Origin: a virus
Length of the DNA: 64,000 bases
Reading direction: 5' to 3' (one strand)
Virus record (IMG/VR): IMGVR_UViG_3300045988_106448
Part shown: piece after piece, positions 3 through 64,000 of the stretch
Position numbering within the stretch: position 1 is the first letter of the stretch
Layout: the number at the start of each line of letters is the position of its first letter
The notes under the pieces: model-generated
What the model saw: only the letters and a program-made list of their open reading frames with translations
Told to the model about the DNA's origin: nothing
The model's database searches: none
Position numbers and translations under genes: made by a program

Positions 3-374
3 AATTGTGAAAAGTTTCCTCAAGAATTATTTGAAAATATAGGGGGTTGGATAGTTTTAAAAGATTGTTATGATGTTCACCATATAAATGAAGACAGAAC
101 TGACAATCGGTTAGAAAATCTTGAAATTTTAACTCGAGGTAAACATACTGCAATCCACAATTTAGAAAAGACAATTATAAGAGATGATACTACGGGTAGA
201 ATAATTGGTGTCTTTAAACGAGGTGAATTGCTGGGAAGTCCAGAGGTGGATAATCAGCAGCCAAGCATTAGTAGTAATACTTTTGAAGGTTCAACGACTA
301 ACAGCCGAATCCAAACAGATAATGCTGAGGATAGTAATGCTGACACGAGTGCCTCGCCCCTATTTATAGGGTGA
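3..374 (+). CDS. HNH homing endonuclease, 5'-truncated by the window edge
   Basis: Frame 3 translates to ...WIVLKDCYDVHHINEDRTDNRLENLEILTRGKHTAIHNLEKT..., the classic HNH motif (HH..N..NL..H..H); the ORF runs off the left edge. Confidence 0.7.
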   Translation, partial: NCEKFPQELFENIGGWIVLKDCYDVHHINEDRTDNRLENLEILTRGKHTAIHNLEKTIIRDDTTGRIIGVFKRGELLGSPEVDNQQPSISSNTFEGSTTNSRIQTDNAEDSNADTSASPLFIG

Positions 375-463
375 AGATATAGTCTGAACTTTGCAAATAA
401 CCTAAAAGTAAAGCAAAGAAATAATAGGATAAAGAGCCTATTAGTGTAACAACTCCACATAAA

Positions 464-1463: not shown

Positions 1464-2194
1464 TGAGCCCCACTATATATCTAGTCAAAGGTATTTCAGG
1501 AAGTGGCAAATCAACAAGGGTTTACCTATTCTTGGAATACCTTGAATCATTAGGGCTAGAATTGACACCCTTTAAATTTAAAACACTTGACGGAAAAGAA
1601 AAGGAAGTAGGAGTTTATTGTGAGGATTTGGATTTGATTTTCGTTGGGAAGTGGTACGAAAATGGCGGTGTACGCCGTTGGCAGGGGCACGACAGTATGA
1701 CGGGGCGGTTATGTCATTCTGAAGGGCTTAGCTACTTCCTAAAGAGTGTTGCACAAAAGGGTCACAGTGTTGTTTTGGATGGTGCGGGTACGACGGCAAC
1801 ATGGCGGCTTAGACCCAAATTCCTATTTGAGGACAACGGGTTTAAGAGTATTGTTCATATACGGTATGATTACAAGCCGGAGCAGTTGCAAGAATATTAT
1901 GACCGGATCGAATACCGTTCTGGCGAGCCTCCCAAGGGGGATAGTATGTGGCGTAAAAGTAAAACCTTCCTACATGACTATCAAAAGGCTGTAGAAGAGG
2001 CTAAGATGGTTGTATCGGCAGGTTGCCACGTGTCTTTACATGATGAACCATACGATACCCCGGTTTACGATTTGGGTGTTAGAATTTTGGAGCACGTGGG
2101 TTTGGAAGACGTGCAAGATGAGTTCATCGCTTATTGTCAAAATTCAGATTATCTAATTAAAAACTCCTTTAATGAATTCCAGAAAATAAAATGA
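1463..2194 (+). CDS. P-loop kinase, PNK-like, possibly a nucleotide or DNA-base kinase
   Basis: Walker A IYLVKGISGSGKST at the N-terminus; resembles the T4 polynucleotide kinase N-terminus (GCPGSGKST). Confidence 0.5.
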   Translation: MSPTIYLVKGISGSGKSTRVYLFLEYLESLGLELTPFKFKTLDGKEKEVGVYCEDLDLIFVGKWYENGGVRRWQGHDSMTGRLCHSEGLSYFLKSVAQKGHSVVLDGAGTTATWRLRPKFLFEDNGFKSIVHIRYDYKPEQLQEYYDRIEYRSGEPPKGDSMWRKSKTFLHDYQKAVEEAKMVVSAGCHVSLHDEPYDTPVYDLGVRILEHVGLEDVQDEFIAYCQNSDYLIKNSFNEFQKIK

Positions 2195-2979
2195 AATTTC
2201 GAGGGCGTATATATTGTATAGAATGTACTGTAAATCATAAGTGGTATATTGGTCAAACTTCTAGAAGTTTACAAGTTCGGATGAATGGGCATATCAAGTT
2301 AGCTCTGAGGGGAGGGGAATTTGCTTTAAGTCGTGCTATACGAAAATACGGCGTTGAAAACTTTGTAATCGAGGAAATCATGTGGGTTGAGGCTCCTAAT
2401 AAACATTCTCTAAAACAGAAACTCGATTTTCTGGAACGCCATTTTATAGCCCGTTACGACACGAAACATACGGGCTATAATATGACGGAAGGAGGAGAAG
2501 GTGTATTAGGAATTCAATTTGATGAAGAGTCTAGAATAAAAATGTCTGAATCTGCTAAAAATAGATGCGATGAAAATTTTAGAAGAAGACAATCTATTGT
2601 TGCTAAACGTTTATGGCAAAAGGAATCTTTTCAAAAGTTAAGGTCAGAAGCCGCCCATTTGAATTTATTAAATAAAGAAGTTCAGAAAAAGATGGGTTTG
2701 GCTCGCCGAGGATTAAAGTTTACTGAAGAGCATAAGAAGAAAATAGGTTTAGCCGTAAGCGGGGAAAGGAATGGTATGTATGGGAAAAGCCACCCAAAAG
2801 AATTTATTGAAAAATTTACTAAGAAAGTTTATCAATATACTCCAGAGGGGGTTTTAGTGAAAGAATGGTTTTCTATTATTGATATTAAAAGAGAATTGAA
2901 AATAGGCAGAAAATGTTTAAAGAAAGCTATTGCAAATCAATTTATTTATCATGGTTATATTTGGAAATTTAAAAGATGA
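2191..2979 (+). CDS. GIY-YIG homing endonuclease with NUMOD-like DNA-binding repeats
   Basis: IYCIECTVNHKWYIGQTSRSLQVRMNGH...YNMTEGGEG (GIY-YIG, R, E); repeated ...KMSESAKNR... and ...KKKIGLAVSGERNGMYGKSH... modules. Confidence 0.8.
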   Translation: MKFRGRIYCIECTVNHKWYIGQTSRSLQVRMNGHIKLALRGGEFALSRAIRKYGVENFVIEEIMWVEAPNKHSLKQKLDFLERHFIARYDTKHTGYNMTEGGEGVLGIQFDEESRIKMSESAKNRCDENFRRRQSIVAKRLWQKESFQKLRSEAAHLNLLNKEVQKKMGLARRGLKFTEEHKKKIGLAVSGERNGMYGKSHPKEFIEKFTKKVYQYTPEGVLVKEWFSIIDIKRELKIGRKCLKKAIANQFIYHGYIWKFKR

Positions 2980-3974
2980 AAAAGAATAAAATTATTCCAG
3001 TCCCTAACGAAAATTTTCAATATTATTTGTATTGGATTACTAAAAGAATGGAAATTTTTTGGAACAAATACGAGGGTAAACCCGCCCCATGGACGGACGA
3101 TCCTATATTACAAAAATATAAATTTTGTAATACGTACAGGTGCCTCGACAGAGTTAGTCAGTACCTGTTGAGCCACGTGATTTACAACGGTAAGGATTAC
3201 GAACCGGAAGATATGTTTTACCGCATATTGTTGTTCAAACATTTTAACAAGATAGAAACATGGGAAGCGATTGAAAAAGAATTAGGGGATATTACCCTTA
3301 ATGTGGAATTAGAAGACATTGCCAAATGTCTTGATGATATGGTAAAACGAGGCATTACCATTTATGGAAGTGCTTATATTATTAATTGTTGTTTCTACCA
3401 ATTACCGGAGTATTCCTACATGAAGGGGATGTCTAAACACCGGGCACACTTTAGCGTGTTTCAACGTGAAATTTTTGACAACGGGCATATTTATGACTTC
3501 CTAGACGCACAGTCATTAGAGGAGTTGTTTTGGGTATTCCGTAAGATGAAAATATACGGGGACTTTACGGCACAACAATACGCCATTGACATGAATTACA
3601 GCCCTCTGTTTGACTTTAACGAAAATGATTTTGTTATAACCGGACCGGGTTCAATTCGAGGAATTGAGAGGACTTTTCAGAATGCCCGTGGGTGTGATTA
3701 CGTGGGTGTGATGAAATGGGTTCTTGCCCATTTTACGGAGTTGATGTATGAACAAGAAAAGGAGAAAGGTTTCACATTTCGTCCACTTCCTAATCGTATG
3801 CCCACGTTGATAGACTTGCAAAATTGCTTCTGTGAAACGGATAAATATTTGCGGGGTGCCGGGGTTGAAACAGAAGGATTAAAAGTGAAAGGCGAGCGGA
3901 TTAAACACACTTACGAGGCGAACCGTAATAAAATTAAATACACGTTGCCACCTAAGTGGAATGTGAAACTTTAA
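2976..3974 (+). CDS. Conserved hypothetical protein, candidate nucleotide/DNA-modification enzyme
   Basis: 332 aa, aromatic-rich (FWNKYEGKPAPWTDDPIL, KFCNTYRCLDR); no motif I can assign; sits between a kinase and a TS-family hydroxymethylase. Confidence 0.35.
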   Translation: MKKNKIIPVPNENFQYYLYWITKRMEIFWNKYEGKPAPWTDDPILQKYKFCNTYRCLDRVSQYLLSHVIYNGKDYEPEDMFYRILLFKHFNKIETWEAIEKELGDITLNVELEDIAKCLDDMVKRGITIYGSAYIINCCFYQLPEYSYMKGMSKHRAHFSVFQREIFDNGHIYDFLDAQSLEELFWVFRKMKIYGDFTAQQYAIDMNYSPLFDFNENDFVITGPGSIRGIERTFQNARGCDYVGVMKWVLAHFTELMYEQEKEKGFTFRPLPNRMPTLIDLQNCFCETDKYLRGAGVETEGLKVKGERIKHTYEANRNKIKYTLPPKWNVKL

Positions 3975-5041
3975 TTTCAAGAACCATGTTTTTACAAGCT
4001 GAAAATTTAAACGAGGCATTTATTTGCCTTTGTCAAGAACTATTTTATCACGGCGAAGACGTGACCCGGCGTGGCTTTAAATGCCGGGAAATTCCTCGAG
4101 CGGTGTTAGTGGAAATTACCAATCCAGTAGACCGTTATGTGCGTGTGCCAGAGCGCAAATGGAATAAGGTGTTGGGGTGGGTTGAATCCCTATGGATCGC
4201 TCGTGGGGATAATGCTTTAGAAATGCCTGCTGCCTATGTTAAGAACCTGAAGAATTTCAGTGATGACGGCATACACATGAGAGCCGGGTACGGTCCGAGA
4301 TTCAGACATTATGGGGATAACGGGGAATTTAAACCATTGTTTAATCTTCCTATTTCAACAGGATTTCCCGTTGACCAACTTAGATTTGTCATTGAAAAAT
4401 TTAAGGAGGACATTGACACACGGGAAGCGGTGGTTACTATTCATGACCCTGTAATGGACGATTTCGGTCCCGTAGATAACAGTGGGGTGGCTCCTGTTTT
4501 ACGAACAAAGGACACTCCATGCACCCGGTCAATTCATTTCATGATTGTGAACGGTGCGATGAATTGCTACGTTGACATTCGGAGTAATGATGTTGTATGG
4601 GGCTTTAGTGCCGTGAACGTGTTTAACTTTACGTTAATGCAGGAATACGTCGCCGCTCTGGTAGGCGTGCCCGTGGGTAAGTATTACCACAAGGCTGATA
4701 ACTTGCACGTGTATGAAAACTTCTTACCGTTGGTGGAGGAGATTGCCAAGAAGTACACGGGTAACGAATACCCTTCTGGAACCCGGTTCGCTTACAAACC
4801 CTCCTACAAAACTCTTCAAGAGTTTGATGCTTACATAGGTAAACTCAGCACCTTCGAAGAATTGTGTAGAGGGAAGAAAGTTCCGGCAGAAGAATTGGAA
4901 GTGATACTTAGAACCTTTACCGATGACTTATTTAACGATTGGGCTAAAGTGTTCTTCACCTACTGGACTAAACACCCGGTAGAGTTTACCAATCCGTTGT
5001 TAAACGAAATATTTTGTTTTGATGAATTACGAGAAAATTGA
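3956..5041 (+). CDS. Thymidylate-synthase-fold deoxypyrimidylate hydroxymethylase (dUMP/dCMP hydroxymethylase family)
   Basis: Catalytic-Cys context PCTRSIHFMIVNG; DIRSNDVVWGF matches T4 dCMP hydroxymethylase NMRSNDVVFGF rather than ThyA RSCDVFLGLPFN; GWVESLWIARGDN is the TS-fold helix. Confidence 0.7.
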   Translation: MECETLISRTMFLQAENLNEAFICLCQELFYHGEDVTRRGFKCREIPRAVLVEITNPVDRYVRVPERKWNKVLGWVESLWIARGDNALEMPAAYVKNLKNFSDDGIHMRAGYGPRFRHYGDNGEFKPLFNLPISTGFPVDQLRFVIEKFKEDIDTREAVVTIHDPVMDDFGPVDNSGVAPVLRTKDTPCTRSIHFMIVNGAMNCYVDIRSNDVVWGFSAVNVFNFTLMQEYVAALVGVPVGKYYHKADNLHVYENFLPLVEEIAKKYTGNEYPSGTRFAYKPSYKTLQEFDAYIGKLSTFEELCRGKKVPAEELEVILRTFTDDLFNDWAKVFFTYWTKHPVEFTNPLLNEIFCFDELREN

Positions 5042-5561: not shown

Positions 5562-6231
5562 AGTTATTGGGTTGGTAGGTGTAATTGGTAGTGGAAAAAG
5601 CTATACTTTAAAACGTCTTAAAGAGGAGGCTTCCAACACCTCCAGATTATTTATAGAAGGTGACTTTAGTGAAGGTATTCGTCAATTTATCATGAACATT
5701 TACGTGGGTAATGACGTGCCGATAGATGTGAATGGTGGAGCGTATGCCAAATGGAAGGCACATCCTAATGAAATTGCGTTACCCGTGTTTAGAGATGATG
5801 CCGGGAATTTATCATGCGGTACGATTACCGGGCGCAAACTACTTCAACGGGTTGGAGAGTACATGAAGGCGATGGCAGGTAATGACGTTTGGGCTAAGTG
5901 GACGAAGACAGACGTTATGCGGGCATATAACAAGGCTTGTCTGATTTACCCCACGGCTAAGATTGAAGAAATGACAATTACTTTCGGGTCGGTGCGTTTC
6001 TTATGTGAAGCCCAAGTGGTTTTTGACGTGGCAACCCTTACCGATAAAGAACCCGTGATTATCTTTTGCAACCACAAGTCAGATTCCTACGAGTTGAATG
6101 ATCACGTTAGTGAAGCATTTGCTCGGCACTTTGTTGATTTGGGTTACAAGGACGGTCAAGACATTACCGCCGAGGTACGTAGATTATTATTAAATTCAGA
6201 AAAGGATGAAAGATTTTCTAGCATATCTTGA
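5551..6231 (+). CDS. P-loop dNMP-kinase-like protein
   Basis: MKGKVIGLVGVIGSGKSYT Walker A at the extreme N-terminus, as in the T4 gp1 dNMP kinase. Confidence 0.5.
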   Translation: MKGKVIGLVGVIGSGKSYTLKRLKEEASNTSRLFIEGDFSEGIRQFIMNIYVGNDVPIDVNGGAYAKWKAHPNEIALPVFRDDAGNLSCGTITGRKLLQRVGEYMKAMAGNDVWAKWTKTDVMRAYNKACLIYPTAKIEEMTITFGSVRFLCEAQVVFDVATLTDKEPVIIFCNHKSDSYELNDHVSEAFARHFVDLGYKDGQDITAEVRRLLLNSEKDERFSSIS

Positions 6232-9200
6232 GAGAAATTTAATGGATTATACCCTGATATCAGATTACGTTGTTGATATCGGGGGTAAGACATTCGAGTT
6301 ATACAAGCCCGCTCATGATGGAGCGTTATTCGATGACGACTTTAATTTCGTGGGGATTCCCGCTAATCCTGACCGGGCTTCGGTAGAGGAATCGTCTACG
6401 GAAACTGAATGTGATTTTTACGCTTACCGTTTCGGTGGGGTGTGGTATATGCTACCACGAGGAAAAGAGAACGAGGTAAAATTGATTCGGTTAAAATACG
6501 TGGGTGCGGCACTTCAGGAAGTTCCTACACGGGTATTTCTGGGGGTGCATGGTCAGTACGAAATGATGTCCGGGTCAGGCACGTATAAAGAATGGTGCCA
6601 GAAGGCGAAGTTTTTAGGGGTTCACACGTTAGGTATCTGTGAGAAAAACAGTTTAGCCGGGGCGTTAAAATTCCAAACGGAATGTATCGCTGCCGGGTTA
6701 AAGAGCGTGATTGGAATGGAGTGCAGCGTGTATGATGAACCAAACGATTATGCTTTCACGGCTAAGGTGTACGCTCGCAATGAAAAGGGATGGAAGGACT
6801 TGTTGACAATAAACAAGTTTATAAATTGTGACAATCCTAAATATATAGGAGTTGCCGACTTTCGGAATATTACTCGTGGCAATAATGATCTTGTGGTATT
6901 TTTAGACCCCAAGGCGTTGGACTATGACAAGATTGGAATGTTGGGTATTGCGGGGATTACCAATTTATACCAATTAGACCCGGCTATATACACCGCCGAA
7001 AAGCGTGACGAGTGGTACTTGAAGAATCTTAAAAAGTTCTTTCATGACAAGTCGCTGACAGCCGTGGCGGCTATTGATGCGTGGTATTTGGATGAAGAAT
7101 ACAGTTGTATTCGACCTCGGTTACACAGCATGGGGAACACGATAGCCTATGCAAGTGAGAATCAGTATTTCAAATCAAACGATGAATACTTGTTAGAATT
7201 GTCAGAGTTATTCCCTAAAACTGATGAAGGGTTCGAAATGGCGTATAACAAATTCATGGATGCGATAGACGTGTTGGAAAACGTTGCCGAGGCGATTACC
7301 TTTACCATAGACGTCAAGAAACGCCACTTACCCCACTACAAAATGACAAAGGAGGAGGCGGCAGAGTTTGACAACAATGAGGATCTCTTTTGGTCTCTTA
7401 TAGACAAGGGGCTTGAGGCTCATCCTGACTTAATTGAGGATTGGGGTGAAGAGGTTATTATGGAGCGTATTGAGAGGGAAGTGGGGGTTATAAAGCTAGG
7501 TGAAGCGATTGATTACTTTTTAATCACGTGGGACATTATCAATTGGTGCCACCGTAACGGTATCATGACGGGGATTAGTCGTGGGAGTGCCGGAGGTTGT
7601 TTGGTATCATATCTGTTGGGTATTACCAAACTTGATCCCATGCGGTATGACTTACTGTTCGAGCGTTTCTTGAATGCGGGTCGTGTGAAGGTTTCCCTAC
7701 CTGATATTGACTGTGATTACCCCGGTGAAGACCGTCCTCGTGTAAAGAAGTACATGGAGGAACGTTACGGGTGGAAACAGGTGTGTTCGGTAGGAACGTA
7801 CAGTGCTCTACAATTACGTGCGGCTCTTAAAGCCTTGTCACGGGTGTACGGTTTGCAATTCAAGGACGTTAACGACATGATGAAGTTGTTTGACGTGAAA
7901 GACCGTAAGCCGGAAGACCTGTTTAAGATAGCGTGTGCCCACCCCGTTGTTAAACACTTTGTCAAGGAACACCCGGATTTGATTAACGAAGCGATGCTCG
8001 TGATGCCCGCACCGTTGGCGCAGTCTATTCATGCTTGCGCCATGATGGTATTCCCAGATGAAAACGATATGTTTAGATGGGTGCCTATTCGTAAACAGGG
8101 GGACGAGTACGTTACCGAATGGGAAGGTGGTGAGATGGATGCAGCCGGGTTCTTGAAAGAAGACGTGCTAGGGGTGAAACAGTTTGACAAGTTTCAGGAC
8201 ATGGTACGTTTGATTAAAGAACATGAAGGTGTAGACCTTGATATTTTTAGCGTGCCGTTGGATGACCCTGAAGTGTACGCCTATTTCCAAAATGGGTGGA
8301 ATGAAGATAACTTCCACTTCGGCAGTAACGGGCTAACCGGGTATTGCAAGCAAATGAAGCCTGAAAATATAGAGGACTTGATTGCGGCTATATCCCTGTA
8401 CCGCCCCGGTGCGATGGAGAACAACTTCCATAATGAATACGTGTTGCGTAAGGAGGGCACTAACAAGGTAGAGTATTTCGTTGGTACGAAAGATATTCTT
8501 AAGAATACGTATGGAGTGTTCGCTTATCAGGAACAGATCATGCAGTTATGCCGAGAGTTAGGAGGGTTGTCATTGGTGGAAGCAGATGACGTGCGTAAAG
8601 CGATGGTGAAGAAGAAGTACGAGGCGTTACAGCAATACAAGGAAAGATTTATTCCCTATTACCGGGATAACTACGGCGTTAGCCAAGAATACAGCGAGAA
8701 GGTGTGGGATGCCATTGACAAGGCTTCAACGTACTTGTTTAACCGTAGCCACGCCGCCGCCTATGCCATTACCGGATACATTTCCCAATGGATTAAGGTG
8801 CATTATCCGATAGAGTATTGGTCGGTAGCGTTTAAATACGCCCAAGACTTTGATTACCCCCGGTACATTGCGGAAATTAATAAGACGGGGGTCTGCACGG
8901 TGCGTCCTGTGGATATTAACTTGTCGGCGTTGGATGTTACCATTAACTTTAAAGAAAAGGCTCTGTATTGGTCTATAACCGGAATAAAACAAGTAGCGGA
9001 AAAAGCCGCAACCCAAATTTTAAAAGAGCGTGAAGAGAATGGTGATTACTATTCGTTGGATGATTTCGTGGTTCGGCATAAATGGAAGGGTTCGGCGGTT
9101 AATAGCCGTATCATACGAAACCTAATTTTAGCGGGGGCGTTTGACAAGTTGGAAAACGTGCAGGAACCTTCAGATCGTATTGATTTGTTGATTAATTTCT

Positions 9201-9691
9201 TAGGTTCTACTAATACCGAAATTAAAGATGATGACCCGGTACTTGAAGGGGCTGACAAGCACATGGGAGATGCGTGGTGGTGGGCACTCATGCAAAAGAA
9301 AGTGTCCGGGTTGGCATTCTTTGATTATCGTGGCATTTACGAACGATACGGTGGGGGACAATTCCCGCCCGAGTACGTGTATTCTGAAATAGAGGAGTGT
9401 CAAGGTGAAACCCTTCCTAACGGTAATCAGGTTATTGTAGCCGGGTTCGTTACGGAGTTTGAACTTAAGAAGACACGTAAGGGCGAAATGATGTGTAAAA
9501 TACTGTTGGAAAATAATTATGACTTCCTAGAAGTTATGGTATTCCAATCAGAGTTTGAAACATTAAGGGACTACCTGACCGGGCGTGGGGACATCATCAT
9601 GCTGAATGGCTCGATAGCGTATGATAAACGCAAGGAAGTAAACATTTTAAGGGCGAATTTCGAAACGAATATCGTCACTTTAACGTTATAA
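6206..9691 (+). CDS. dnaE: DNA polymerase III alpha subunit (DnaE-type, N-terminal PHP domain)
   Basis: PHP motif GVHGQYEMMSGSG...LGVHTLGICEKNSLAG; LIAAISLYRPGAME; about 1160 aa with a C-terminal OB-like region. Confidence 0.8.
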   Translation: MKDFLAYLERNLMDYTLISDYVVDIGGKTFELYKPAHDGALFDDDFNFVGIPANPDRASVEESSTETECDFYAYRFGGVWYMLPRGKENEVKLIRLKYVGAALQEVPTRVFLGVHGQYEMMSGSGTYKEWCQKAKFLGVHTLGICEKNSLAGALKFQTECIAAGLKSVIGMECSVYDEPNDYAFTAKVYARNEKGWKDLLTINKFINCDNPKYIGVADFRNITRGNNDLVVFLDPKALDYDKIGMLGIAGITNLYQLDPAIYTAEKRDEWYLKNLKKFFHDKSLTAVAAIDAWYLDEEYSCIRPRLHSMGNTIAYASENQYFKSNDEYLLELSELFPKTDEGFEMAYNKFMDAIDVLENVAEAITFTIDVKKRHLPHYKMTKEEAAEFDNNEDLFWSLIDKGLEAHPDLIEDWGEEVIMERIEREVGVIKLGEAIDYFLITWDIINWCHRNGIMTGISRGSAGGCLVSYLLGITKLDPMRYDLLFERFLNAGRVKVSLPDIDCDYPGEDRPRVKKYMEERYGWKQVCSVGTYSALQLRAALKALSRVYGLQFKDVNDMMKLFDVKDRKPEDLFKIACAHPVVKHFVKEHPDLINEAMLVMPAPLAQSIHACAMMVFPDENDMFRWVPIRKQGDEYVTEWEGGEMDAAGFLKEDVLGVKQFDKFQDMVRLIKEHEGVDLDIFSVPLDDPEVYAYFQNGWNEDNFHFGSNGLTGYCKQMKPENIEDLIAAISLYRPGAMENNFHNEYVLRKEGTNKVEYFVGTKDILKNTYGVFAYQEQIMQLCRELGGLSLVEADDVRKAMVKKKYEALQQYKERFIPYYRDNYGVSQEYSEKVWDAIDKASTYLFNRSHAAAYAITGYISQWIKVHYPIEYWSVAFKYAQDFDYPRYIAEINKTGVCTVRPVDINLSALDVTINFKEKALYWSITGIKQVAEKAATQILKEREENGDYYSLDDFVVRHKWKGSAVNSRIIRNLILAGAFDKLENVQEPSDRIDLLINFLGSTNTEIKDDDPVLEGADKHMGDAWWWALMQKKVSGLAFFDYRGIYERYGGGQFPPEYVYSEIEECQGETLPNGNQVIVAGFVTEFELKKTRKGEMMCKILLENNYDFLEVMVFQSEFETLRDYLTGRGDIIMLNGSIAYDKRKEVNILRANFETNIVTLTL

Positions 9692-9707
9692 ACGTAAATA
9701 AAAGATT

Positions 9708-10244
9708 ATGGAAATACTCGTGCATTTTAACGGAGTACCCGTTACGTTACAAACAAACGGTTTCGAAGACCGTATAGACATTGACCGTTTAACTTCAATT
9801 GATTATGGTAATCTTTACGGAGAAGCCGTGACAGTTAGTGCCCTCTTGAATAAAGTGGGTATGTTACGGGCAGAAGCCGAAAAGACCATGAACGAAAAGA
9901 AGTTGGAGAAGGAGATTTACGAAGCTGACTTGCGCCGTATGTGGCGGCGTGAAGCCAACCGTAACCAAGGGCGGTTTACGATAGAAGGGGAGGAAATTAA
10001 ATTGTCTGAGAAGGCGTTGGACGAAGCGGTAATCCTCGATGAGGAATATCAGAAGATAGCCCTAGAGCATATTGAAGCCCAAAAGAATTTTAATATGCTT
10101 GATGCGTTATTGTGGGCGGTTCAGGACAAGTCTAGAAAATTGAATAATGTTTTAAAACCTGTAACTCCTACGGAATTTCTTAACGAGTTAGTGGAGGGAG
10201 CCGTAAATAGTTTTACAATAACTAGGAAAGGTTTTAACCGTTAA
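9708..10244 (+). CDS. hypothetical protein (coiled-coil)
   Basis: ORF with the typical aaagattATGg start context. Confidence 0.4.
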   Translation: MEILVHFNGVPVTLQTNGFEDRIDIDRLTSIDYGNLYGEAVTVSALLNKVGMLRAEAEKTMNEKKLEKEIYEADLRRMWRREANRNQGRFTIEGEEIKLSEKALDEAVILDEEYQKIALEHIEAQKNFNMLDALLWAVQDKSRKLNNVLKPVTPTEFLNELVEGAVNSFTITRKGFNR

Positions 10245-26933: not shown

Positions 26934-28547
26934 ATGGACATTAAAGTATTATTTGACGATTCAGCCCGTGAAGGCTTGTATGAAGGGGTGAAACAAATTA
27001 CCCGTGCCGTGGCTTCTACACTCGGACCGAAAGGACACACGGTTATCATTGATAAAGGTTATGGCATTCCCCACGTGACCAAAGACGGGGTAACGGTGGC
27101 TCGTGCCTTTGATACGGATGACACCGTGGCTCGCATGGGTGCAACCCTCGTTAAGATGGCAGCCGCTAAAACGTGTGACGAAGCCGGAGACGGTACCACT
27201 ACCGCCACCATTCTTACGGAAGCTCTCATACGGTTAGGGATGGAAAAGATGCACCTCGTGAAAAATCCACAACAATTTAAACGAGGAATTGAACGTGCTT
27301 GTGAAGAGGCGGTAGCCTTCATTGACAATTTGAAATATGAAATCGATCCTACGGATTTTACCCGGTTAGAACAAATTGCTACCATTTCAGCGAATGGAGA
27401 CGTGGAGATAGGAAAGGTAATTACCGGGGCTATTCAACAAGTGGGCAACGATGGGATCATCACCGTGGAAGAAGGTGATAACTCTTCTGAGATAACGGTT
27501 GATATCACGACAGGATTCCAATGGTCAAAGGGGCTTGTCAATCCCTATTTCGTAACCGATCGAGAACGTATTGAATGCGTGTTAGACAATCCATACGTTC
27601 TAATACTAGGGCAGAAAGCCAATTACCCGCAAGAAATTCTTCCGGTGGTTCAAACCGTGTACACCGCTAAACGTAGTTTACTTATTGTCGCTCCAGACGC
27701 CTCTAACGACGTCATAAAGTTCCTCGTAACGAACATTGCCAAGGAAAACGGGTTAAAGGCTTGCTTCGTTAAAGCCCCCGGCTATGGACAGGTTCAGAAG
27801 GATATGTTGGAAGACCTAGCCGTGAAGATGGGCGGTAAGGTGGTTGGAGGGGAATCCGCTCAAACCATTGAACAACTAGGTACAGATTGGTTAGGTGAAT
27901 GTGATAGAGCGGTTGTCACCTCTACTCAAACCACCCTAGTTGGAGGGGCGGGTACCGAAGAGGAAATTCAAACCCGTGTCAAGGCTATCAAGAACCAGAT
28001 TGATGACACCTCTAACACCTTTGATAAAGAGAAGTACCGTGAACGCATTAGCAAGTTAACCGGGGGAGCCGCCGTGATACACGTTGGAGCCACTAGCGAG
28101 GTTGAGATGAAGGAACGCAAAGACCGAGTAGACGATGCCATAGCCGCCACACGTGCAGCCATTGACGAGGGCTACGTGCCGGGTGGAGGTATGATGCCAT
28201 ATCAGGCAGCACAATATCTAACGGGTTGGACAACCAATACCACGGAGGATGAACGTGTGGGAATTGAAGTGGTAATCGGGGCTTTACGTGCACCTTTCCG
28301 TCAATTGTGCATGAATGCCGGGGTAAACCCTGATAAATACGAAGCGGTAATAGAAACCAAAATCGGAAGTGAGTGGCGCAAGGGGATTGACTTTTCTTCC
28401 ATGTGCATCGTGAATTTGTTTGAGATTGGGGTAATTGACCCCGTTAAGGTTACACGCCTTGCGTTGCAGAACGCCGTGAGCGTTGCCATACAGTTCCTAA
28501 ATACTTCGTGTGTTATGGCTGAGCCGCCTAAAGACAAGAAGTCATGA
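26934..28547 (+). CDS. groEL: GroEL/Hsp60 chaperonin
   Basis: AREGLYEGVKQITRAVASTLGPKGHTVII..., GDGTTTATILTEAL; full-length 537 aa. Confidence 0.9.
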   Translation: MDIKVLFDDSAREGLYEGVKQITRAVASTLGPKGHTVIIDKGYGIPHVTKDGVTVARAFDTDDTVARMGATLVKMAAAKTCDEAGDGTTTATILTEALIRLGMEKMHLVKNPQQFKRGIERACEEAVAFIDNLKYEIDPTDFTRLEQIATISANGDVEIGKVITGAIQQVGNDGIITVEEGDNSSEITVDITTGFQWSKGLVNPYFVTDRERIECVLDNPYVLILGQKANYPQEILPVVQTVYTAKRSLLIVAPDASNDVIKFLVTNIAKENGLKACFVKAPGYGQVQKDMLEDLAVKMGGKVVGGESAQTIEQLGTDWLGECDRAVVTSTQTTLVGGAGTEEEIQTRVKAIKNQIDDTSNTFDKEKYRERISKLTGGAAVIHVGATSEVEMKERKDRVDDAIAATRAAIDEGYVPGGGMMPYQAAQYLTGWTTNTTEDERVGIEVVIGALRAPFRQLCMNAGVNPDKYEAVIETKIGSEWRKGIDFSSMCIVNLFEIGVIDPVKVTRLALQNAVSVAIQFLNTSCVMAEPPKDKKS

Positions 28548-31282: not shown

Positions 31283-31308
31283 AGGGGGCGAAAGCCCCCT
31301 CTTTTGTT
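31283..31308. terminator. bidirectional rho-independent terminator between convergent genes
   Basis: agggggc-gaaa-gccccct then cttttgtt. Confidence 0.7.
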
Positions 31309-31870
31309 AGTTGCCCGCCGGGGTAACGTTGTAGGAACGATTCATCCACGCTTCTTTTTCCATGGATTCTATCATGTCTTCCAGAAAATTCAGGGTAGCC
31401 AAATCATTTTCAGGAATCTGAGCGTGAATATCACGAATAACACGCACCATTCTGTCCCAGTCATCCCTAATGTGTTTCCACATATCAATTTCCTGTGGAA
31501 CGGCTTCCGTCATGGAAAATTCTGGAATATGGTTATGGCTTAACATGGCTTCCATACTTCCTAACGGGCGGTGACCCAAAGCCCGTACACGTTCAGCCAC
31601 GTCGTCAACTCGTTCGATTTCCGCCTCGTATAACTTTAACATGGCTTCATGATATGAACCAAATGATTCTCCTACCACGTTCCAATGGAACTGCCACGTC
31701 TTGAGCATCAAGGTAAAATGGTCAGCGAGTAAACCATTCAATAATTTAGCACTCCTTTCAAGTTCTTCAGGAGTTAATCCGGTATTAATACTCATAATTA
31801 AAATGATTAGATTGTTTATAAACAAATAATATACGGTAATGACAAAATAAAGTTTGTAACCTTGTAACAA
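31307..31870 (-). CDS. Dps/ferritin-like DNA-protection protein
   Basis: LNGLLADHFTLMLKTWQFHWNVVGESFGSYHEAMLKLYEAEIERVDDVAERVRALGHRP matches Dps ferroxidase-site helices. Confidence 0.7.
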   Translation of the reverse strand: MLQGYKLYFVITVYYLFINNLIILIMSINTGLTPEELERSAKLLNGLLADHFTLMLKTWQFHWNVVGESFGSYHEAMLKLYEAEIERVDDVAERVRALGHRPLGSMEAMLSHNHIPEFSMTEAVPQEIDMWKHIRDDWDRMVRVIRDIHAQIPENDLATLNFLEDMIESMEKEAWMNRSYNVTPAGN

Positions 31871-34284: not shown

Positions 34285-34890
34285 ATGGATGCTAAAGAGG
34301 TGGATGCTGCCCTAGTAAAAGAGGCACTCGATGGGAGCCAAAAGGCATACGAAAAACTATTCAATAAATACCGCTATTCCTTGCGGTATTCAATTTTACA
34401 AATTGTGAGGGATGAGGAAACCGCCAACGATTTACTCATGGAATCTTTTAGTAGAGCCTTTCTAAACCTGAAACGTTACACTACGGATTTCGCCTTTAGT
34501 ACATGGTTATTCCGCATAGGGGTAAACTGTGCGATAGATTATAAACGCAAGCACGGGCGGGTAGTGATGTGCCGTATAGAACAGGACGATCCCGATAGGG
34601 AAGACCGCCCGATGTTCGTTATTCCTGACCCTGACCGTACCCCGGCGGATGCTGCCATACAAAGACAACGTGTCGATTTAGTGCGAGGCGTTATCGCACA
34701 ATTGCCGGAACCTTTCTACACTATGGTTCACCTACGGTACATAGACGGGTTTGCCTATGATGAGATAGCCGATGAGTTAGACGTGCCGTTAGGCACCGTT
34801 AAAGCCTCGCTACACAGGGCGAAACAATTGTTGTGGGAACGCCTCGCTGAAGACAAAAGGTATAAGGAGATACTAACCGAGGAGATATAA
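34285..34890 (+). CDS. ECF-type sigma-70 family sigma factor
   Basis: Region 2 YRYSLRYSILQIVRDEETANDLLMESF...FSTWLFRIGVNCAIDYKR; region 4 HTH YDEIADELDVPLGTVKASLHRAKQLL. Confidence 0.75.
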   Translation: MDAKEVDAALVKEALDGSQKAYEKLFNKYRYSLRYSILQIVRDEETANDLLMESFSRAFLNLKRYTTDFAFSTWLFRIGVNCAIDYKRKHGRVVMCRIEQDDPDREDRPMFVIPDPDRTPADAAIQRQRVDLVRGVIAQLPEPFYTMVHLRYIDGFAYDEIADELDVPLGTVKASLHRAKQLLWERLAEDKRYKEILTEEI

Positions 34891-39479: not shown

Positions 39480-40001
39480 TTAGGGCTTATTTATATCCAT
39501 TATAAACAATTCCAGCGGGTAGCGGCTATTGTATAACCGGGGGTTATTGGTTATGCGGATTAGGTATAACAAAAAGTTATTCTTAATATTATTGCAGCCG
39601 TTAAGGCTGCATATACAGGCGTGCCACCTATACGGGCACACGGGGGTCGTATAGCCCGGTAGGGGCGTTATTGGGGTGTAAAGGGTGTAACAGGTAGGCG
39701 GGGTATATTGGGACGTGCCGTGGATACCAAAACGAGCGGGAATTAATTTTGCTCCTAGCCAACCGGGGTAAAAATATTTTGGGGCATAACTTTTGGTTAT
39801 CGGGGTATAACTAAAAGTTATAGGAGTAAGGGGTAACGGACGTGGAGGGGGCGTGGTAACTACACGTACCCACAGGGGAATAGGGTGGGAACGAATGCGG
39901 GGTTGCCCCTGACAGGGGGTTATATTAGGGAATGGAATTGGTTTTGGGCGGTACCCGATAAAAACATTTTGGGCAACCCACAGCCCGATAGGGCTACGCA
40001 T
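39480..40001 (-). CDS. doubtful ORF (Pro/Thr/Tyr-rich) lying in hairpin-rich DNA
   Basis: YTPIT-type repeats; the DNA carries repeated ataacttttggttat / tataactaaaagttata inverted repeats. Confidence 0.2.
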   Translation of the reverse strand: MRSPIGLWVAQNVFIGYRPKPIPFPNITPCQGQPRIRSHPIPLWVRVVTTPPPRPLPLTPITFSYTPITKSYAPKYFYPGWLGAKLIPARFGIHGTSQYTPPTCYTLYTPITPLPGYTTPVCPYRWHACICSLNGCNNIKNNFLLYLIRITNNPRLYNSRYPLELFIMDINKP

Positions 40002-41388
40002 ACAGGGGCTAGTAATAGTATAGGGTAATAGGGTACACGGGTATCGAGGGGAGGTGTACGGGGTGTTTTGAGGGGTGCGGTTTAGGGTAGTTTGAGAGGT
40101 TGATAGGGTGTTACGGGCGGGGTTGATAGGGTAATTTGAGCGGTTTGGTTTAACCGCTAGGAACGTTTTTACGAGTGGTTATTTGGGGTATTTTGAGCGG
40201 TTTTGTTGCGGGCGTGTTTCCCAATACTAGCGCCAAAGCACGCAACACCCTCCCAATCCTTCCCCACTCAACCGCCCTGTAACCCCGCCAACAAGTCTCC
40301 ACAGTTTACCCCCGTCCATTACCCCTCTACCCTATGCCCGTGCCATGCCCCACGGTTATACTGATAACGTGCGGGCTTGTGTGTAGTTGGTGGGTGCGCT
40401 GCGTGTCCACGGCGCACCCGTGGAATGCGTGTGCCCGGTTTACAGACTGTAAGCAAAACCACCGCAAAAAGTTACAAATTGTAATCATTGCTAGGTATTA
40501 CAATATATAAGCAAAACGGGTCATTTTGATTACAAATTGTAAGTTTAGGGATAAAATACGGATGCGGTTTTACCCGCCAAACATAGCCCCTAACAGATCG
40601 GAGAGAGTGTCACGGAGGGGTACACCACCCCCTCCCCCGGAGATCATGAACGTCGTGTAAATCCGGAAGCTACAATAGACGGCGTAAAGGGCTCGTGGAG
40701 GCAAAGAAAGGAACCTCCCCGAATAAAACCCCCGAGAGCAACCTCCTAATCCTATACAGACATTATAGAGATCTCCAAGAAACCCCTGACTCCCATCCCT
40801 AATCCCATTGAAACACGTCAGTCATTTGCAGTAGAACCCCTGAGAATAATCCTCAACCTCCTCCCCCGAAAACCAACCCCAACAATATATCTGGAGAACC
40901 CCTTGTCGAAACCCTGATACCTACCCCTGCCTCTATTACCCCATGTAGCCCTATACCCCTACCCCATGTCATCAGTATCCAAAACACATTTTCTTTTTGT
41001 GATAACCTACTCCACCCCCGGATGATTACACGTGGAGAATCCTAGCGTCGATAAATCCTAAAACCGAATTTTCAAATTTTTAGAAATTCCGCCTGATCCG
41101 AAATTGTCATTTACCGATTTCACGGATGGTGTTGGAAGTCGGCTCGGTAGATGACACGCTTCTCCTACACACCCCTCTCCACGCCTCTTTTCGTCTAGAA
41201 AGAGAATAACACGGGTGTCGACACGTGGACATACTGTTTGTCCACGGTGAAATAACGGATTCACTCTGAAGTCACATCGGTAATTGGGAACGTGATAGGA
41301 ACCCTCCTATCGAATTCCTATACCCCTCCCCGCACCACTATCGTTCCCGTCAGAATATCATATCATCGACAGATTTTCCTATCCAAAA
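40002..41388. other. approximately 1.4 kb ORF-free control region: degenerate 21-23 bp direct repeats, palindromes, and a switch from G-rich to C-rich composition; candidate origin or divergent promoter region
   Basis: No ORF of 60 aa or more apart from one implausible minus-strand ORF; repeats of the form GGTnnTTTGAGnGGTTGATAG; the palindrome ttacaa-a-ttgtaa occurs twice. Confidence 0.55.
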
Positions 41389-41469
41389 TTGCAACTCTCC
41401 ACGTCGACACGGCGTATAGGGGTTGTATTTAATCGCCTGTTGGCACTAACACTTAAAACGAGAAAGATT

Positions 41470-60834: not shown

Positions 60835-61280
60835 TGGAAGATCGTAAACTCGCTGAATTGTTGGTGATCTTTGAAACTGACTTCGAGGATTTAACACGGG
60901 GACAACTGCAATTTCTACGCATTCGCTATCGTGAGGAAACGGGCATTAAAGACACGCTAACCAAAGAACAGTTATTCGAAGCGTATCTTAATCTTAAAAG
61001 GAAGTATTTTAATGATTACGAAATGTTATTGTTTTGTCCTCGCACCCGCATGGTGGATTACGGGGCGTTTGGTGGGTGTAAGCTAGAAGTAAGTAAGATT
61101 ACAGTCCCCACGTATGCCTCTCTAACGGGGCACAGCGTGGGTCAATTTACCGTAACCGGACACACGTCCCTGCCCGTGTTAAACGTGTCTATAACGCCCG
61201 ATAAGACGGTTGTTTACTGTATCGCACCGGATGGGGAGTTTTGTAAAATAAGTAGTACCGATTTTGACTTTGAAATATGA
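60831..61280 (+). CDS. hypothetical protein
   Basis: ORF only. Confidence 0.35.
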   Translation: MMEDRKLAELLVIFETDFEDLTRGQLQFLRIRYREETGIKDTLTKEQLFEAYLNLKRKYFNDYEMLLFCPRTRMVDYGAFGGCKLEVSKITVPTYASLTGHSVGQFTVTGHTSLPVLNVSITPDKTVVYCIAPDGEFCKISSTDFDFEI

Positions 61281-61413
61281 ATTATTCTTTAGAAATGGTA
61301 CAAGATTTGTATCGTATAGGTACACGAAAATGGATTGATAAAATTACTAATGCCACTGATATAGAAAAATTGGCTTAAGATATTTTTAATATTACCACCC
61401 TTTATAAAATGGA

Positions 61414-61614
61414 TTGGAGAAAAACTCCAGATTCACAAGCGGAAATAAACTGGATAAAAATGCACGAAAAGAAGGTGTTTTAGGTATTGAAATATTGGCT
61501 CGTAATATTATCATTCATTATTTAGGATGCAGATACGCATCCACTAAAGAAATACATGATTGGTTGAATGAAGAATTACACCGGGTGAACGATTTAAGTT
61601 TTCGTTTACAATAG
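61414..61614 (+). CDS. hypothetical small protein
   Basis: ORF only. Confidence 0.25.
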   Translation: MEKNSRFTSGNKLDKNARKEGVLGIEILARNIIIHYLGCRYASTKEIHDWLNEELHRVNDLSFRLQ

Positions 61615-61617
61615 AAA

Positions 61618-61645
61618 ACGCCCGGCAAACACCGGGCGTAATTTC
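61618..61645. terminator. bidirectional terminator between convergent genes
   Basis: acgcccgg-caaac-accgggcgt then aatttc. Confidence 0.6.
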
Positions 61646-61688
61646 AAGACTAACCGAAATACATGAACCACGTTTCAGCGGTTCAAAA

Positions 61689-62264
61689 TTACAAAATTCT
61701 TTGCTTATACTTTTCAACCATTTCCTTGTATTCGTCAGTAGGAAAACGTTTTCCGAGACGATCAGCCCACGCTTCGGTGTAGAATTCATGGTACTCTTCA
61801 GGATCGTTACAGAAGGTGCATTTAACGGCACTCGGTATCCCTATAACGAAAAGATATAACCACCCTAGCATACGGCTCTGGCGGGTGTGACCCCACTCGT
61901 GGGCGCATAGAGCGGGCTTGTGCATGAAGCCGCTATGAGTAACGAAAACGAACTGTCCTAATGACACGCAACCAGTACCGTTCTTTGTGAAAAACATCAC
62001 CCCTCCGATAATACCTTGGTAGCCCCACCCCGTGAAACACGCTACAAGCAATCCCACGAAGTTCTGGGGGGCTTGCCATATAGCAAGTAATACGTTTACT
62101 AGGATAGCCCAAAAGGATCGCTTAGAAGGCTTGTTTGACTCCTCCGGTGGTGTTGGCACGGGGTCAGAACCCCCTGAAACGTAATAATCGGGGTCGTCCT
62201 TCCCCGAAAATCTTTCTGAATTTTTAGTGTGTAATTGTTCCATAATTAAAACTATTTTAGCCAC
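61689..62264 (-). CDS. putative membrane-associated HExxH zinc metallopeptidase
   Basis: ALCAHEWGHTRQ (HExxH) plus hydrophobic segments. Confidence 0.45.
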   Translation of the reverse strand: MAKIVLIMEQLHTKNSERFSGKDDPDYYVSGGSDPVPTPPEESNKPSKRSFWAILVNVLLAIWQAPQNFVGLLVACFTGWGYQGIIGGVMFFTKNGTGCVSLGQFVFVTHSGFMHKPALCAHEWGHTRQSRMLGWLYLFVIGIPSAVKCTFCNDPEEYHEFYTEAWADRLGKRFPTDEYKEMVEKYKQRIL

Positions 62265-62268
62265 TAAA

Positions 62269-62772
62269 TTACTCGTTTTCTAAACGTTGTGCAAGTGCTT
62301 CCTCCTCTTCGGGGGTAAGTGGACGTATCTTAAGAATGTTTAGAATCTTAAGTTCGGCTTTGCTAATTGGGAAATATAGTCGTGTGTTACCCGTTTCTGA
62401 ACGATAACATTTTTCACGATCATCCCTAAACAATAGCAAATCAGGCTCATCATCTTCGATGAATAACTCGTCAGTGTAGGCGTACATGAAATCTTCCCAT
62501 TCTTCTTCAAGCCCCGTGCCTTCCCCGGTGGCAAACGTGTTAGGAAGGGAAGGGTCAAGAAACTCCTCCAGAGTATCAGCCTTTATCTGCACGAGGCGTC
62601 CCTGCTGTTTGCTTTCTTTTCTAAAATAATCCAGTTCATCCTGCAACTGGGTTATCTCGCTAATAAGTTCATTTTCACGAAGAGTTCTGTCGTTAAGTTC
62701 TTCGTTAAGCCGTCGTATTTCACGATCCTGAAATAATATCTTTCTTTGAAGTTCTTCTACTTGACTACTCAT
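62269..62772 (-). CDS. coiled-coil protein
   Basis: Heptad-like EELQRKILFQDREIRRLNEELNDRTLRENELISEITQLQDEL. Confidence 0.35.
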   Translation of the reverse strand: MSSQVEELQRKILFQDREIRRLNEELNDRTLRENELISEITQLQDELDYFRKESKQQGRLVQIKADTLEEFLDPSLPNTFATGEGTGLEEEWEDFMYAYTDELFIEDDEPDLLLFRDDREKCYRSETGNTRLYFPISKAELKILNILKIRPLTPEEEEALAQRLENE

Positions 62773-63028
62773 TATTCACCAATTTTAAAATGAAATCATC
62801 ACTTATACACAAAATTCCGGTGCAATTCATTTTATCAAGACAGCAATCAGAACAAAACCCACCGTTGCAGTCTTTACGAACCGTGAAAGTTTTAGCACAC
62901 TTCTGAATAATCTTGGGTCTACTTTTGGTGATGTCTACCAAATCTAACGAAATAGAACACGTTTCTCCATGCTCTAAAGCGTTCACGGCATCCGCCGATT
63001 TATTTTGTATTTTAAATGTTTGAGCCAT
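62765..63028 (-). CDS. small Cys-rich protein
   Basis: CNGGFCSDCCLDKMNCTGILC. Confidence 0.3.
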   Translation of the reverse strand: MAQTFKIQNKSADAVNALEHGETCSISLDLVDITKSRPKIIQKCAKTFTVRKDCNGGFCSDCCLDKMNCTGILCISDDFILKLVNNE

Positions 63029-63032
63029 AGCT

Positions 63033-63851
63033 TTATTTCTTTTGTTTTATATACTCTTCCTCCCAATTATCGTTTACAAAATCATCGCATTCTTTTTGAT
63101 ATTTCTTATCATATATTTTAAACACCACGGTATCAAGTTTTTTACGACCTCTACGTTTGTATTCACCTCTGGAAACCAAACAATATTTAAACATTAATCT
63201 AGATTCAGAATTGTTTGCAAGTTCCTTTTTGGCGGGCAATAGTACTCTTTTTTCAAAGTCTTGAATTGTGTAATTAGGAGTTGTTAAACTGTACGCAAGT
63301 TCATCCACCGACACTTCCAAAATTCGTTTAGAATACTTTCCGCTTAATAATTGAAAAATACGTTTGGCATAAGTACCACTTAACGCTAATACAGAATTTT
63401 TATCATACAAAGTCCCTCCAACGCCTTTACCGTAATAGATGAGCCACCGTAAAGCCGCCACCGGAATTCCTAATTTTACTTTATCACCGTCATCACTCAA
63501 ATCCATAGTTTGAATTAAATGGCACGTTCTATGAAATACTTCTCCCTTTTCATCAGTATAAGTGTAATACACATTTTGATTGAAAAGTTTCTTAATTTCG
63601 TTAAGTACCGCGACCCCATGCCTATTTCTTTCAACATCATCGGGGTCAATTTCTATCTCTAAAGTTCCGTCTTTAGAGAGGTTTAAATGTTTACGAAATT
63701 CATCAAAATCGGCTGTTAACCAACTAACATCAGTTGTCATAGCGGGTTGCAATTGATCTACTATATTTACAAGACAATTTATTTGCCAACTTGAAAACTT
63801 ATAACGACCATAAGTCACTAAGTTTGATTGCATTATTGTTTCCTTTTTCAT
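63033..63851 (-). CDS. Rep_3/RepB-family theta-replication initiator-like protein
   Basis: Central LRWLIYYGKGVGG...LALSGTYAKRIFQLLSGKYSKRILEVSVDELAYSL...DFEKRVLLPAKKELA matches the winged-helix pattern of plasmid Rep_3 initiators; iterons lie just upstream. Confidence 0.55.
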   Translation of the reverse strand: MKKETIMQSNLVTYGRYKFSSWQINCLVNIVDQLQPAMTTDVSWLTADFDEFRKHLNLSKDGTLEIEIDPDDVERNRHGVAVLNEIKKLFNQNVYYTYTDEKGEVFHRTCHLIQTMDLSDDGDKVKLGIPVAALRWLIYYGKGVGGTLYDKNSVLALSGTYAKRIFQLLSGKYSKRILEVSVDELAYSLTTPNYTIQDFEKRVLLPAKKELANNSESRLMFKYCLVSRGEYKRRGRKKLDTVVFKIYDKKYQKECDDFVNDNWEEEYIKQKK

Positions 63852-63873
63852 ACTTTAAATTTTAATTTGCTGC

Positions 63874-63881
63874 AAATGTAC
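63874..63881 (-). promoter_or_regulatory. -7 box TACATTTG on the minus strand, for the rep-like gene
   Basis: caaatgta on the + strand, 23 nt upstream of the minus-strand ATG at 63851. Confidence 0.45.
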
Positions 63882-63945
63882 AACAATAAATTTACATGGC
63901 AAAGAAAAATTGTGCCTTTTAATTAAAGGGCGAAACATAGTTCCC

Positions 63946-64000
63946 CCTGTTTATTTGCGCACAGACGCCTGTTTATTTGCGCACAGACGCCTGTTTATTT
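63946..64000. repeat. iterons: 22-bp direct repeat cctgtttatttgcgcacagacg, at least 2.5 copies (truncated by the window edge)
   Basis: Exact tandem copies at 63946-63967 and 63968-63989, with a partial copy to 64000. Confidence 0.8.

Follow-up and report, generated by a model that had tools for sequence, protein, structure and literature searches.

Origins driven by Rep_3 initiators and their iterons are among the best understood replicons, and three plasmid systems, namely RepE/ori2 of F, RepA of pPS10 and pi of R6K, serve as the reference for the locus described here. They combine an initiator with two winged-helix domains, direct repeats that lie directly before rep and are phased at about 22 bp, an inverted repeat at the rep promoter that has part of its sequence in common with the iterons, and AT-rich DNA flanking the iterons on their distal side (see the review PMC4980987). 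This study concerns a module of the same design at the end of a 64,000-nucleotide stretch of the IMG/VR virus record IMGVR_UViG_3300045988_106448; this stretch is referred to as the window. A minus-strand rep gene lies there next to a tandem array of 22-bp iterons, with an AT-rich flank beyond the array. It is a recognisable Rep_3/iteron system that involves no new principle, but its carrier is unusual: unlike F, pPS10 and R6K, which borrow the host replisome, it is a phage of about 112 kb with its own helicase, primase and DnaE. Further differences from these plasmids are the low identity of the phage Rep to their initiators (only 13-17% in structural alignments) and a conserved gene for a coiled-coil partner protein downstream of rep.

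The closest relatives of the phage Rep belong to plasmids of the same host phylum, e.g., p5482 of Bacteroides thetaiotaomicron (NC_004703) and the Prevotella plasmid NZ_CP072353. On both, three direct repeats shortly precede rep, a layout as in the phage, but these repeats are unrelated in sequence to the phage iterons and their spacing is 32-34 bp or 33 bp, compared with 22 bp in the phage. The Bacteroidales plasmid Reps are also longer (about 330-350 amino acids (aa) vs 272 aa), and their neighbours are mobilisation genes and not phage genes. Among phage initiators, Lambda O binds a direct-repeat array beside AT-rich DNA and brings in a helicase of the DnaB type, as is proposed here; however, it is of another family, with iterons located within the O gene, whereas the present array is intergenic and the protein is of the Rep_3 type. 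Phage genomes with a plasmid-style initiator and iterons are represented by P1 (RepA/oriR) and by SSU5-type elements with an IncFIB-like RepA (compare PMC7969092). Those elements carry partition and lysogeny control or addiction modules and occur as plasmids in isolates, and nothing of this kind was found for the present phage, neither in scans of GTDB genomes nor among about 100 open reading frames (ORFs) in about 84 kb of the about 112-kb genome. This gene survey, by scanning or precomputed annotation, comprised scanned ORFs of the window, eight ORFs beyond the origin and the called genes in 10 kb upstream. Finally, the sole precedent among phages of these hosts is crAssphage (Carjivirus communis), likewise a Bacteroidales gut phage with plasmid-type initiator genes that adjoin predicted origins (PMC10983915); its initiator is RepL (PF01719) instead of Rep_3, its phage group is Crassvirales, and no iteron array appears in the main text of PMC10983915.

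The rep end of the window holds the following features:

63033..63851, minus strand: rep, encoding a Rep_3 initiator of 272 aa with WH1 and WH2 winged-helix domains (Pfam, PHROG, profile comparison, AlphaFold2 (AF2)/Foldseek)
63873..63903, minus strand: rep promoter of the Bacteroidota type, with TTTG (63903-63900), a 19-nt spacer and TAcaTTTG (63880-63873)
63914..63931, no strand assigned: candidate operator, the near-palindrome GCCCTTTAAT/TAAAAGGC, an inverted repeat shared with the iteron
63946..64000, minus strand: in-window part of the iteron array (Tandem Repeats Finder), with a unit that is unique in the window

The identification of the protein encoded at 63033-63851 as a Rep_3 initiator accompanied by its iterons is sound. 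Both Pfam domains exceed their gathering thresholds, Rep3_N (PF01051) with 42 bits against a cut-off of 22.4 (E=1.6e-10; residues 6-170, full profile covered) and Rep3_C (PF21205) with 26.7 bits against 21.1 (E=6.8e-6; residues 181-246). In PHROGs the protein matches phrog_4402, replication initiation protein, and a profile of the Rep family compared with solved structures matches RepE of plasmid F (1REP) and pi of R6K (2NRA), spanning the Rep3_C region. The AF2 model has a predicted local distance difference test score (pLDDT) of 84.1 and a predicted template modelling score (pTM) of 0.82. Searched with Foldseek against the PDB, it returns RepE at all of ranks 1-45 (best E=2.8e-8; target-normalised TM up to 0.67), both in the monomer-iteron form (1REP) and in the dimer-operator form (2Z9O), followed by the WH1 domains of MSBI1.176 and pPS10 RepA. 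An earlier note on this DNA, made from its letters alone, had proposed a winged-helix initiator of the Rep_3 type, to be checked by profile search, in a phage that also encodes DnaE; the initiator is borne out by the two domain matches and the RepE fold, and the DnaE gene is found at 6206-9691. By sequence, the nearest proteins are plasmid Reps from Bacteroides, Parabacteroides, Phocaeicola and Prevotella (27-30% identity across about 90% of the protein; E down to 2e-19). In 50,697 deposited phage genomes, tblastn with the window Rep, a 49% relative (L034) and the p5482 Rep as queries detected no homolog, and blastn of window positions 61000-64000 against deposited phages returned nothing.

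Upstream of rep, Tandem Repeats Finder reports a 22-bp period with 2.5 copies and 100% matches at 63946-64000. Read in the sense of rep, a gene-proximal half copy, AAATAAACAGG (63956-63946), is followed by full copies of AAATAAACAGGCGTCTGTGCGC (63978-63957 and 64000-63979), and longer contigs place a third full copy just beyond the window end. Elsewhere in the window the unit has no match even when three mismatches are allowed, and 100 shuffles produced none. The exact tandem repeats upstream of a minus-strand gene, seen in the earlier note as at least 2.5 copies, are thus confirmed, and extension of the sequence gives a complete array of 3.5 exact copies (76 nt) in three independent assemblies, namely L005 (9831-9906), L015 and L016, which are identical across a 611-bp stretch that covers the intergenic region. 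L005 is a metagenome contig that encodes a 100% identical Rep and extends 10 kb past the array, and L015 and L016 are array-spanning contigs from other samples. The window stops after 55 nt of the array, and 76 equals 55 + 22 - 1, as a de Bruijn artefact could produce; this origin of the 3.5 copies is ruled out by the identical 76-nt array in L016, which was assembled at k=119.

The array sits 95 bp upstream of the rep ATG, within a 576-bp gap that divides rep from a divergent gene block including the portal and minor head protein genes. All six frames of this gap are closed within 76 codons or fewer, so that the repeats do not fall inside a longer gene, and an Rfam search of the gap gave nothing meaningful. 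Adjoining the iterons, a stretch with 78-80% A+T (L005 9715-9830) holds the least stable 60-mer of the 11.8-kb locus and contains two ACCCTTCTATTAT repeats. Between the iterons and the head-side gene, the gap also holds two G+C-rich terminator-like hairpins (L005 9510-9529, minus strand, and 9703-9719, plus strand), which would stop transcripts leaving the 170-bp segment between them. The ACCCTTCTATTAT repeat (L005 9716-9748) adjoins these hairpins, and its TTCTATT core is seen again in 49% relatives.

A separate observation concerns assembly. All k=31 (Logan) assemblies of the clade (L001, L002, L003, L004, L014, L017, L035 and L036) break at the array, and most related contigs therefore end there. 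The Logan contigs stop 90-250 bp upstream of rep, and the ends of L001-L004 correspond to about 1.5 repeat units (about 30 nt). Such a recurrent contig break at k=31 could serve for finding iteron origins.

In the candidate operator at 63914-63931, between the array and the promoter, the conserved iteron half, ATAAA(A/C)AGG(C/G), occurs twice in inverted orientation, and an equivalent palindrome is present in every relative read (L001, L002, L003, L006, L007 and L008). By analogy with the family, Rep may bind this palindrome and repress its own gene. A degenerate third half-site overlaps the -33 TTTG of the rep promoter, which lies about 22 nt before the ATG. The pattern TTTG-N18-21-TAnnTTTG, built on TTTG/TAnnTTTG, which we take to be the Bacteroides promoter consensus, occurs nine times in the window against 2.1 expected (four-fold; none of 100 shuffles reaches nine), one of these being the rep site, and the same motif precedes rep in L001-L004. 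A textbook Rep_3 plasmid origin is laid out in this way, with iterons phased at two turns, an operator that contains part of the iteron sequence, and AT-rich DNA at the flank (PMC4980987). In L003, a full-length inverted iteron copy (119-144) was also noted about 110 bp before the rep ATG.

Relatives of Rep were recovered at 79, 75, 74, 59, about 49, 44-45, 42 and 28% identity. Those in IMG/VR came only from an alignment-based scan; IMG/VR scans with a degenerate two-iteron DNA pattern and with a single Rep sequence returned nothing. Every relative (L001, L002, L003, L006, L007, L008, L009 and L018-L034) has an array of 21-22-bp direct repeats directly upstream of rep, and the copy number ranges between lineages from 3 to at least 7.5, the latter in L008. 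In the IMG/VR relatives (L018-L034) the arrays comprise 3-6 imperfect copies spaced by 21-23 bp and are therefore not slippage or assembly artefacts. The 5' half of the iteron is conserved and its 3' half is lineage-specific; the 21-bp unit of the 28% relative is unrelated. The iteron core AAAAAGGGGTTTGAGCGC is paired with the operator TTTAAAGGGGTTG in L020, and the core AAAAGGTGGTTTGAGCGC with the operator TTTAAGGTGGTGG in L026; such a change of the operator half-site together with the iteron would be expected if one protein reads both sites. WH2 versus WH1 conservation was also considered as a mirror of the two iteron halves, but it is inconsistent between lineages and supports no assignment of domain to half.

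The position of the module, between an accessory-gene arm and the head genes, is conserved across the clade. Rep diverges faster than its neighbours, e.g., 49% identity for Rep vs 78% for the portal, and 28% vs 53% for PNK3P. The relatives are members of one phage clade with an unchanged gene order, so the module has long been resident here and changes faster than the genes around it; it is not a recent insertion. In the 59% lineage, a second, divergent Rep_3 paralog (about 29% identical) directly follows rep (L003 1176-1949; L004 1175-1945). Judged by the portal, the closest deposited sequence is MT835500.1, an unannotated human-faecal contig (53%), followed by Chryseobacterium and Bacteroides phages (about 35%); a hidden Markov model search of the 39 kb retrieved of MT835500.1 found no Rep_3 or coiled-coil homolog.

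Clade contigs of 112,856, 112,535, 108,795, 107,823, 107,782 and 104,620 bp point to genome sizes of about 105-113 kb, and of about 112 kb for the phage of the window. This genome unites the plasmid-type Rep_3 with the structural genes of a phage (portal, minor head protein, large terminase and head fibre) and with replisome genes for a DnaB-like helicase, a primase, a proofreading exonuclease and DnaE. Crassvirales are not known to encode DnaE. Genes for recombination and repair include SbcCD, a UvsX-like recombinase, a RuvC-like resolvase, NAD ligase, RNase H, and UvrD-like and SNF2 helicases; those for nucleotide metabolism and DNA modification include ribonucleotide reductase (RNR), 5-hydroxymethyldeoxyuridine (5-hmdU) DNA kinases and a ThyA-like enzyme. 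A GroEL-type chaperonin (26934-28547, plus strand), an HU-like protein (31307-31870, minus strand) and a sigma-70 family factor (34285-34890, plus strand) are encoded as well, and several Rep_3 origins use HU or IHF as a cofactor (PMC4980987). A Bacteroidota host is indicated by BACON domains and by the type of promoter.

We consider it reasonably probable that the module supplies the phage with an iteron-type origin and initiator of its own, whose ancestry lies in Bacteroidales plasmids. Following the canonical Rep_3 mechanism as reviewed in PMC4980987, Rep monomers would bind the 3.5 iterons of 22 bp, phased at two helical turns, and the bound array would help to open the adjacent AT-rich DNA. 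Rep would then recruit the phage DnaB-like helicase, after which the phage primase and DnaE would take over. Rep dimers on the inverted half-iteron palindrome by the rep promoter would repress synthesis of Rep, and later replication rounds would probably proceed via the phage recombination genes (UvsX-like, SbcCD, RuvC-like). How Rep would bind DNA, fire the origin and recruit the helicase, and when in the life cycle the origin would serve, is judged from the behaviour of the family; the lineage-specific pairing of Rep, iteron and operator variants indirectly supports binding of Rep to the iterons.

Several points weigh against an origin of this kind at rep. I) No DnaA box (TTATCCACA, up to one mismatch) is found in the 576-bp gap, whereas many Rep_3 plasmid origins have one. 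II) In the 49% relatives, stability minima are not consistently beside the iterons. III) Iteron replicons are typically limited in copy number, which fits maintenance better than a lytic burst. IV) A 1.4-kb non-coding region at 40.0-41.4 kb is present in the same genome. V) Most small ORFs are without annotation, and a further initiator or origin could exist outside the about 84 kb surveyed, in which no other replication initiator was recognised. GC skew is dominated by gene orientation here and carries no information on the origin.

The earlier note had offered a second origin, a plasmid-like maintenance module or a phage-plasmid lifestyle; none of the three gained positive support, and the simplest reading goes beyond them, namely that the module is the only recognisable origin/initiator pair of the phage. 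Of these options, the phage-plasmid is the main, though unlikely, alternative. The Rep_3/iteron module would then serve a carrier or lysogen-like state in which the genome persists as an episome at low copy number, and lytic replication would start elsewhere or be driven by recombination. Enterobacterial phage-plasmids use iteron replicons, and the nearest relatives of Rep are Bacteroidales plasmid initiators; moreover, no integrase was found in the about 84 kb, so any persistence would be episomal. Iteron systems classically limit copy number (PMC4980987), and prototypic crAssphage, a Bacteroidales phage with plasmid-type RepL genes, has been proposed to be a phage-plasmid (PMC10983915; PMC7969092). 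However, the functions that such a lifestyle usually brings along were not recognised among the about 100 ORFs, many small ones of which are unannotated: no ParA/ParB partition families, which a large element at low copy number would be expected to have, and no integrase, repressor, anti-repressor or toxin-antitoxin families. No second, control-type iteron cluster was found either. Scans of 185,579 GTDB species genomes, made with a few exact peptide patterns and one genome per species, revealed no relatives of Rep, and the portal had its only relative in a 1.5-kb fragment of an unrelated metagenome-assembled genome. The gene content, with an own replisome, RNR, thymidine-modification genes, a sigma factor and GroEL, is that of a large virulent phage. 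This evidence is all negative and of limited power, given the about 84 kb surveyed, the many unannotated ORFs and the pattern-based GTDB scans.

A broader form of the phage-plasmid idea, which we regard as decidedly doubtful, extends it to the whole clade: these abundant, uncultured gut Bacteroidota phages of about 105-113 kb, with virulent-type genes and modified DNA, might persist as iteron-controlled episomes without canonical partition, by means of a Rep_3 replicon captured from Bacteroidales plasmids and a new coiled-coil accessory protein. If true, this would be a second, independent example of a phage-plasmid in the human gut after the crAssphage proposal.

It is very unlikely that the Rep_3-like protein fires no replication and acts instead as a DNA-binding switch for the divergent promoters of the rep operon and the head genes, or in an incompatibility-type exclusion of related phages. 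The control region that separates the rep operon from the divergent first head-side gene does contain the array and palindrome, as well as the two terminator-like hairpins, and Rep_3 dimers are true repressors in plasmids, the RepE dimer on its operator (2Z9O) being the top fold match. Yet both domains and the full-length fold are retained, phased direct repeats that vary from 3 to at least 7.5 copies between lineages are the signature of origin iterons and not of an operator, and no alternative initiator was found, in the about 84 kb surveyed, for a phage that has helicase, primase and polymerase. Strongly disfavoured, and extremely improbable, is a recently captured or decaying plasmid fragment without a current role: the plasmid ancestry of Rep, the minus-strand operon as a small inversion in an otherwise plus-strand genome and the more distant MT835500.1, without the module in the 39 kb examined, would suit it, but the gene is intact, the module keeps its place in at least six diverged lineages (Rep 28-100%), with lineage-specific iterons and operators to match, the gap has one sequence in three samples, and the coiled-coil partner accompanies rep throughout.

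Downstream of rep, the leftward operon continues with these features:

62765..63028, minus strand: ORF for an 87-aa protein with eight Cys, in a variable slot of the operon
62269..62772, minus strand: ORF for a 167-aa coiled-coil protein with an acidic C-terminal domain (ORF, conservation, AF2)
61689..62264, minus strand: ORF for a 191-aa predicted membrane protein with a HEWGH (HExxH) motif, the last gene of the operon
61618..61639, minus strand: intrinsic-terminator-like hairpin with 9 pairs (7 G-C), followed by TTTCTATT (terminator scan)

The earlier note had listed a HExxH metallopeptidase, a coiled-coil protein and a Cys-rich protein in this operon. The three ORFs are real, with the eight Cys, the N-terminal helix and the HEWGH motif; the label of metallopeptidase, which derives from the motif alone, is not carried over. 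The 167-aa protein follows rep in all lineages compared (L001 96%, L002 61%, L003/L004 48%, L007 44%, L008 42%, L009 44%, L034/L020/L025 40-46% identity), and this invariant partner of Rep is a candidate replication accessory protein. Its AF2 model is confident for an N-terminal helix (residues 2-57) and of low confidence for the remainder (pLDDT 62 overall). Searches of Pfam, PHROG, NCBIfam and PADLOC gave sub-threshold matches and nothing significant for this protein, and the PADLOC match to LmuB was rejected as a trivial coiled-coil match.

The 87-aa ORF is kept in L001 (92%); its slot holds other small proteins in L002 and the second Rep_3 paralog in L003/L004. The 191-aa protein is conserved in the closer lineages only (L001 87%, L002 74%, L003/L004 62%) and was not detected in L007, L009 or the IMG/VR relatives. 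Neither protein matched Pfam, PHROG, NCBIfam or PADLOC. A SprT-like gene with a HExxH motif stands beside rep on p5482 (L037 3763-4449), but it shows no similarity to the 191-aa protein (E=2.7), and the resemblance is probably coincidental. The hairpin at 61639-61618 closes the rep operon and faces convergent plus-strand genes.

The non-coding region between divergent gene blocks at 40001-41389 (1.4 kb) is separate from the rep module, as the earlier note had held. Its G+C content is raised (0.49) and its GC skew negative. It contains four degenerate G-rich repeats (GGGTAATTTGAGCGGTTTGGTT-like) at 40061-40207, which are unrelated to the iterons, and a 20-nt inverted repeat (40468-40487/40527-40546); no tRNA and no Rfam match was found within it.

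Further observations relate to the modification genes and selfish elements of the carrier. The 5-hmdU DNA kinase genes (HMUD2, HMUDK_hel) adjoin the gene for the ThyA-like enzyme (1463-2194, 2976-3974 and 3956-5041), which suggests phage DNA with hypermodified thymidine. In the window (2191-2979) and L012, a gene for a GIY-YIG homing endonuclease separates HMUD2 from HMUDK; in other strains it is located elsewhere or absent. The selfish elements vary among strains (L010-L013), e.g., with a DnaE intein in L013 (14692-19164), and the large terminase has a Hint/intein-like insert. A group I intron (167-408, plus strand; Rfam RF00028, 58.7 bits), with an ORF for an HNH-type endonuclease, splits the dUTPase gene (flanking ORFs 1-370 and 464-661); in related contigs, two dUTPase exons flank the HNH gene.

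The rep gene plus the gap, L005 9425-10819, form a fragment of roughly 1.4 kb that can be cloned, which makes the finding directly testable. If this fragment replicates, it could help to identify the host of the uncultured clade, supply a new replicon for Bacteroidales genetics, and bear on how common episomal persistence is among gut phages. If the module works as proposed, it would link two pools of mobile DNA in gut Bacteroidota, with a plasmid initiator family recruited by a large phage that has its own replisome.

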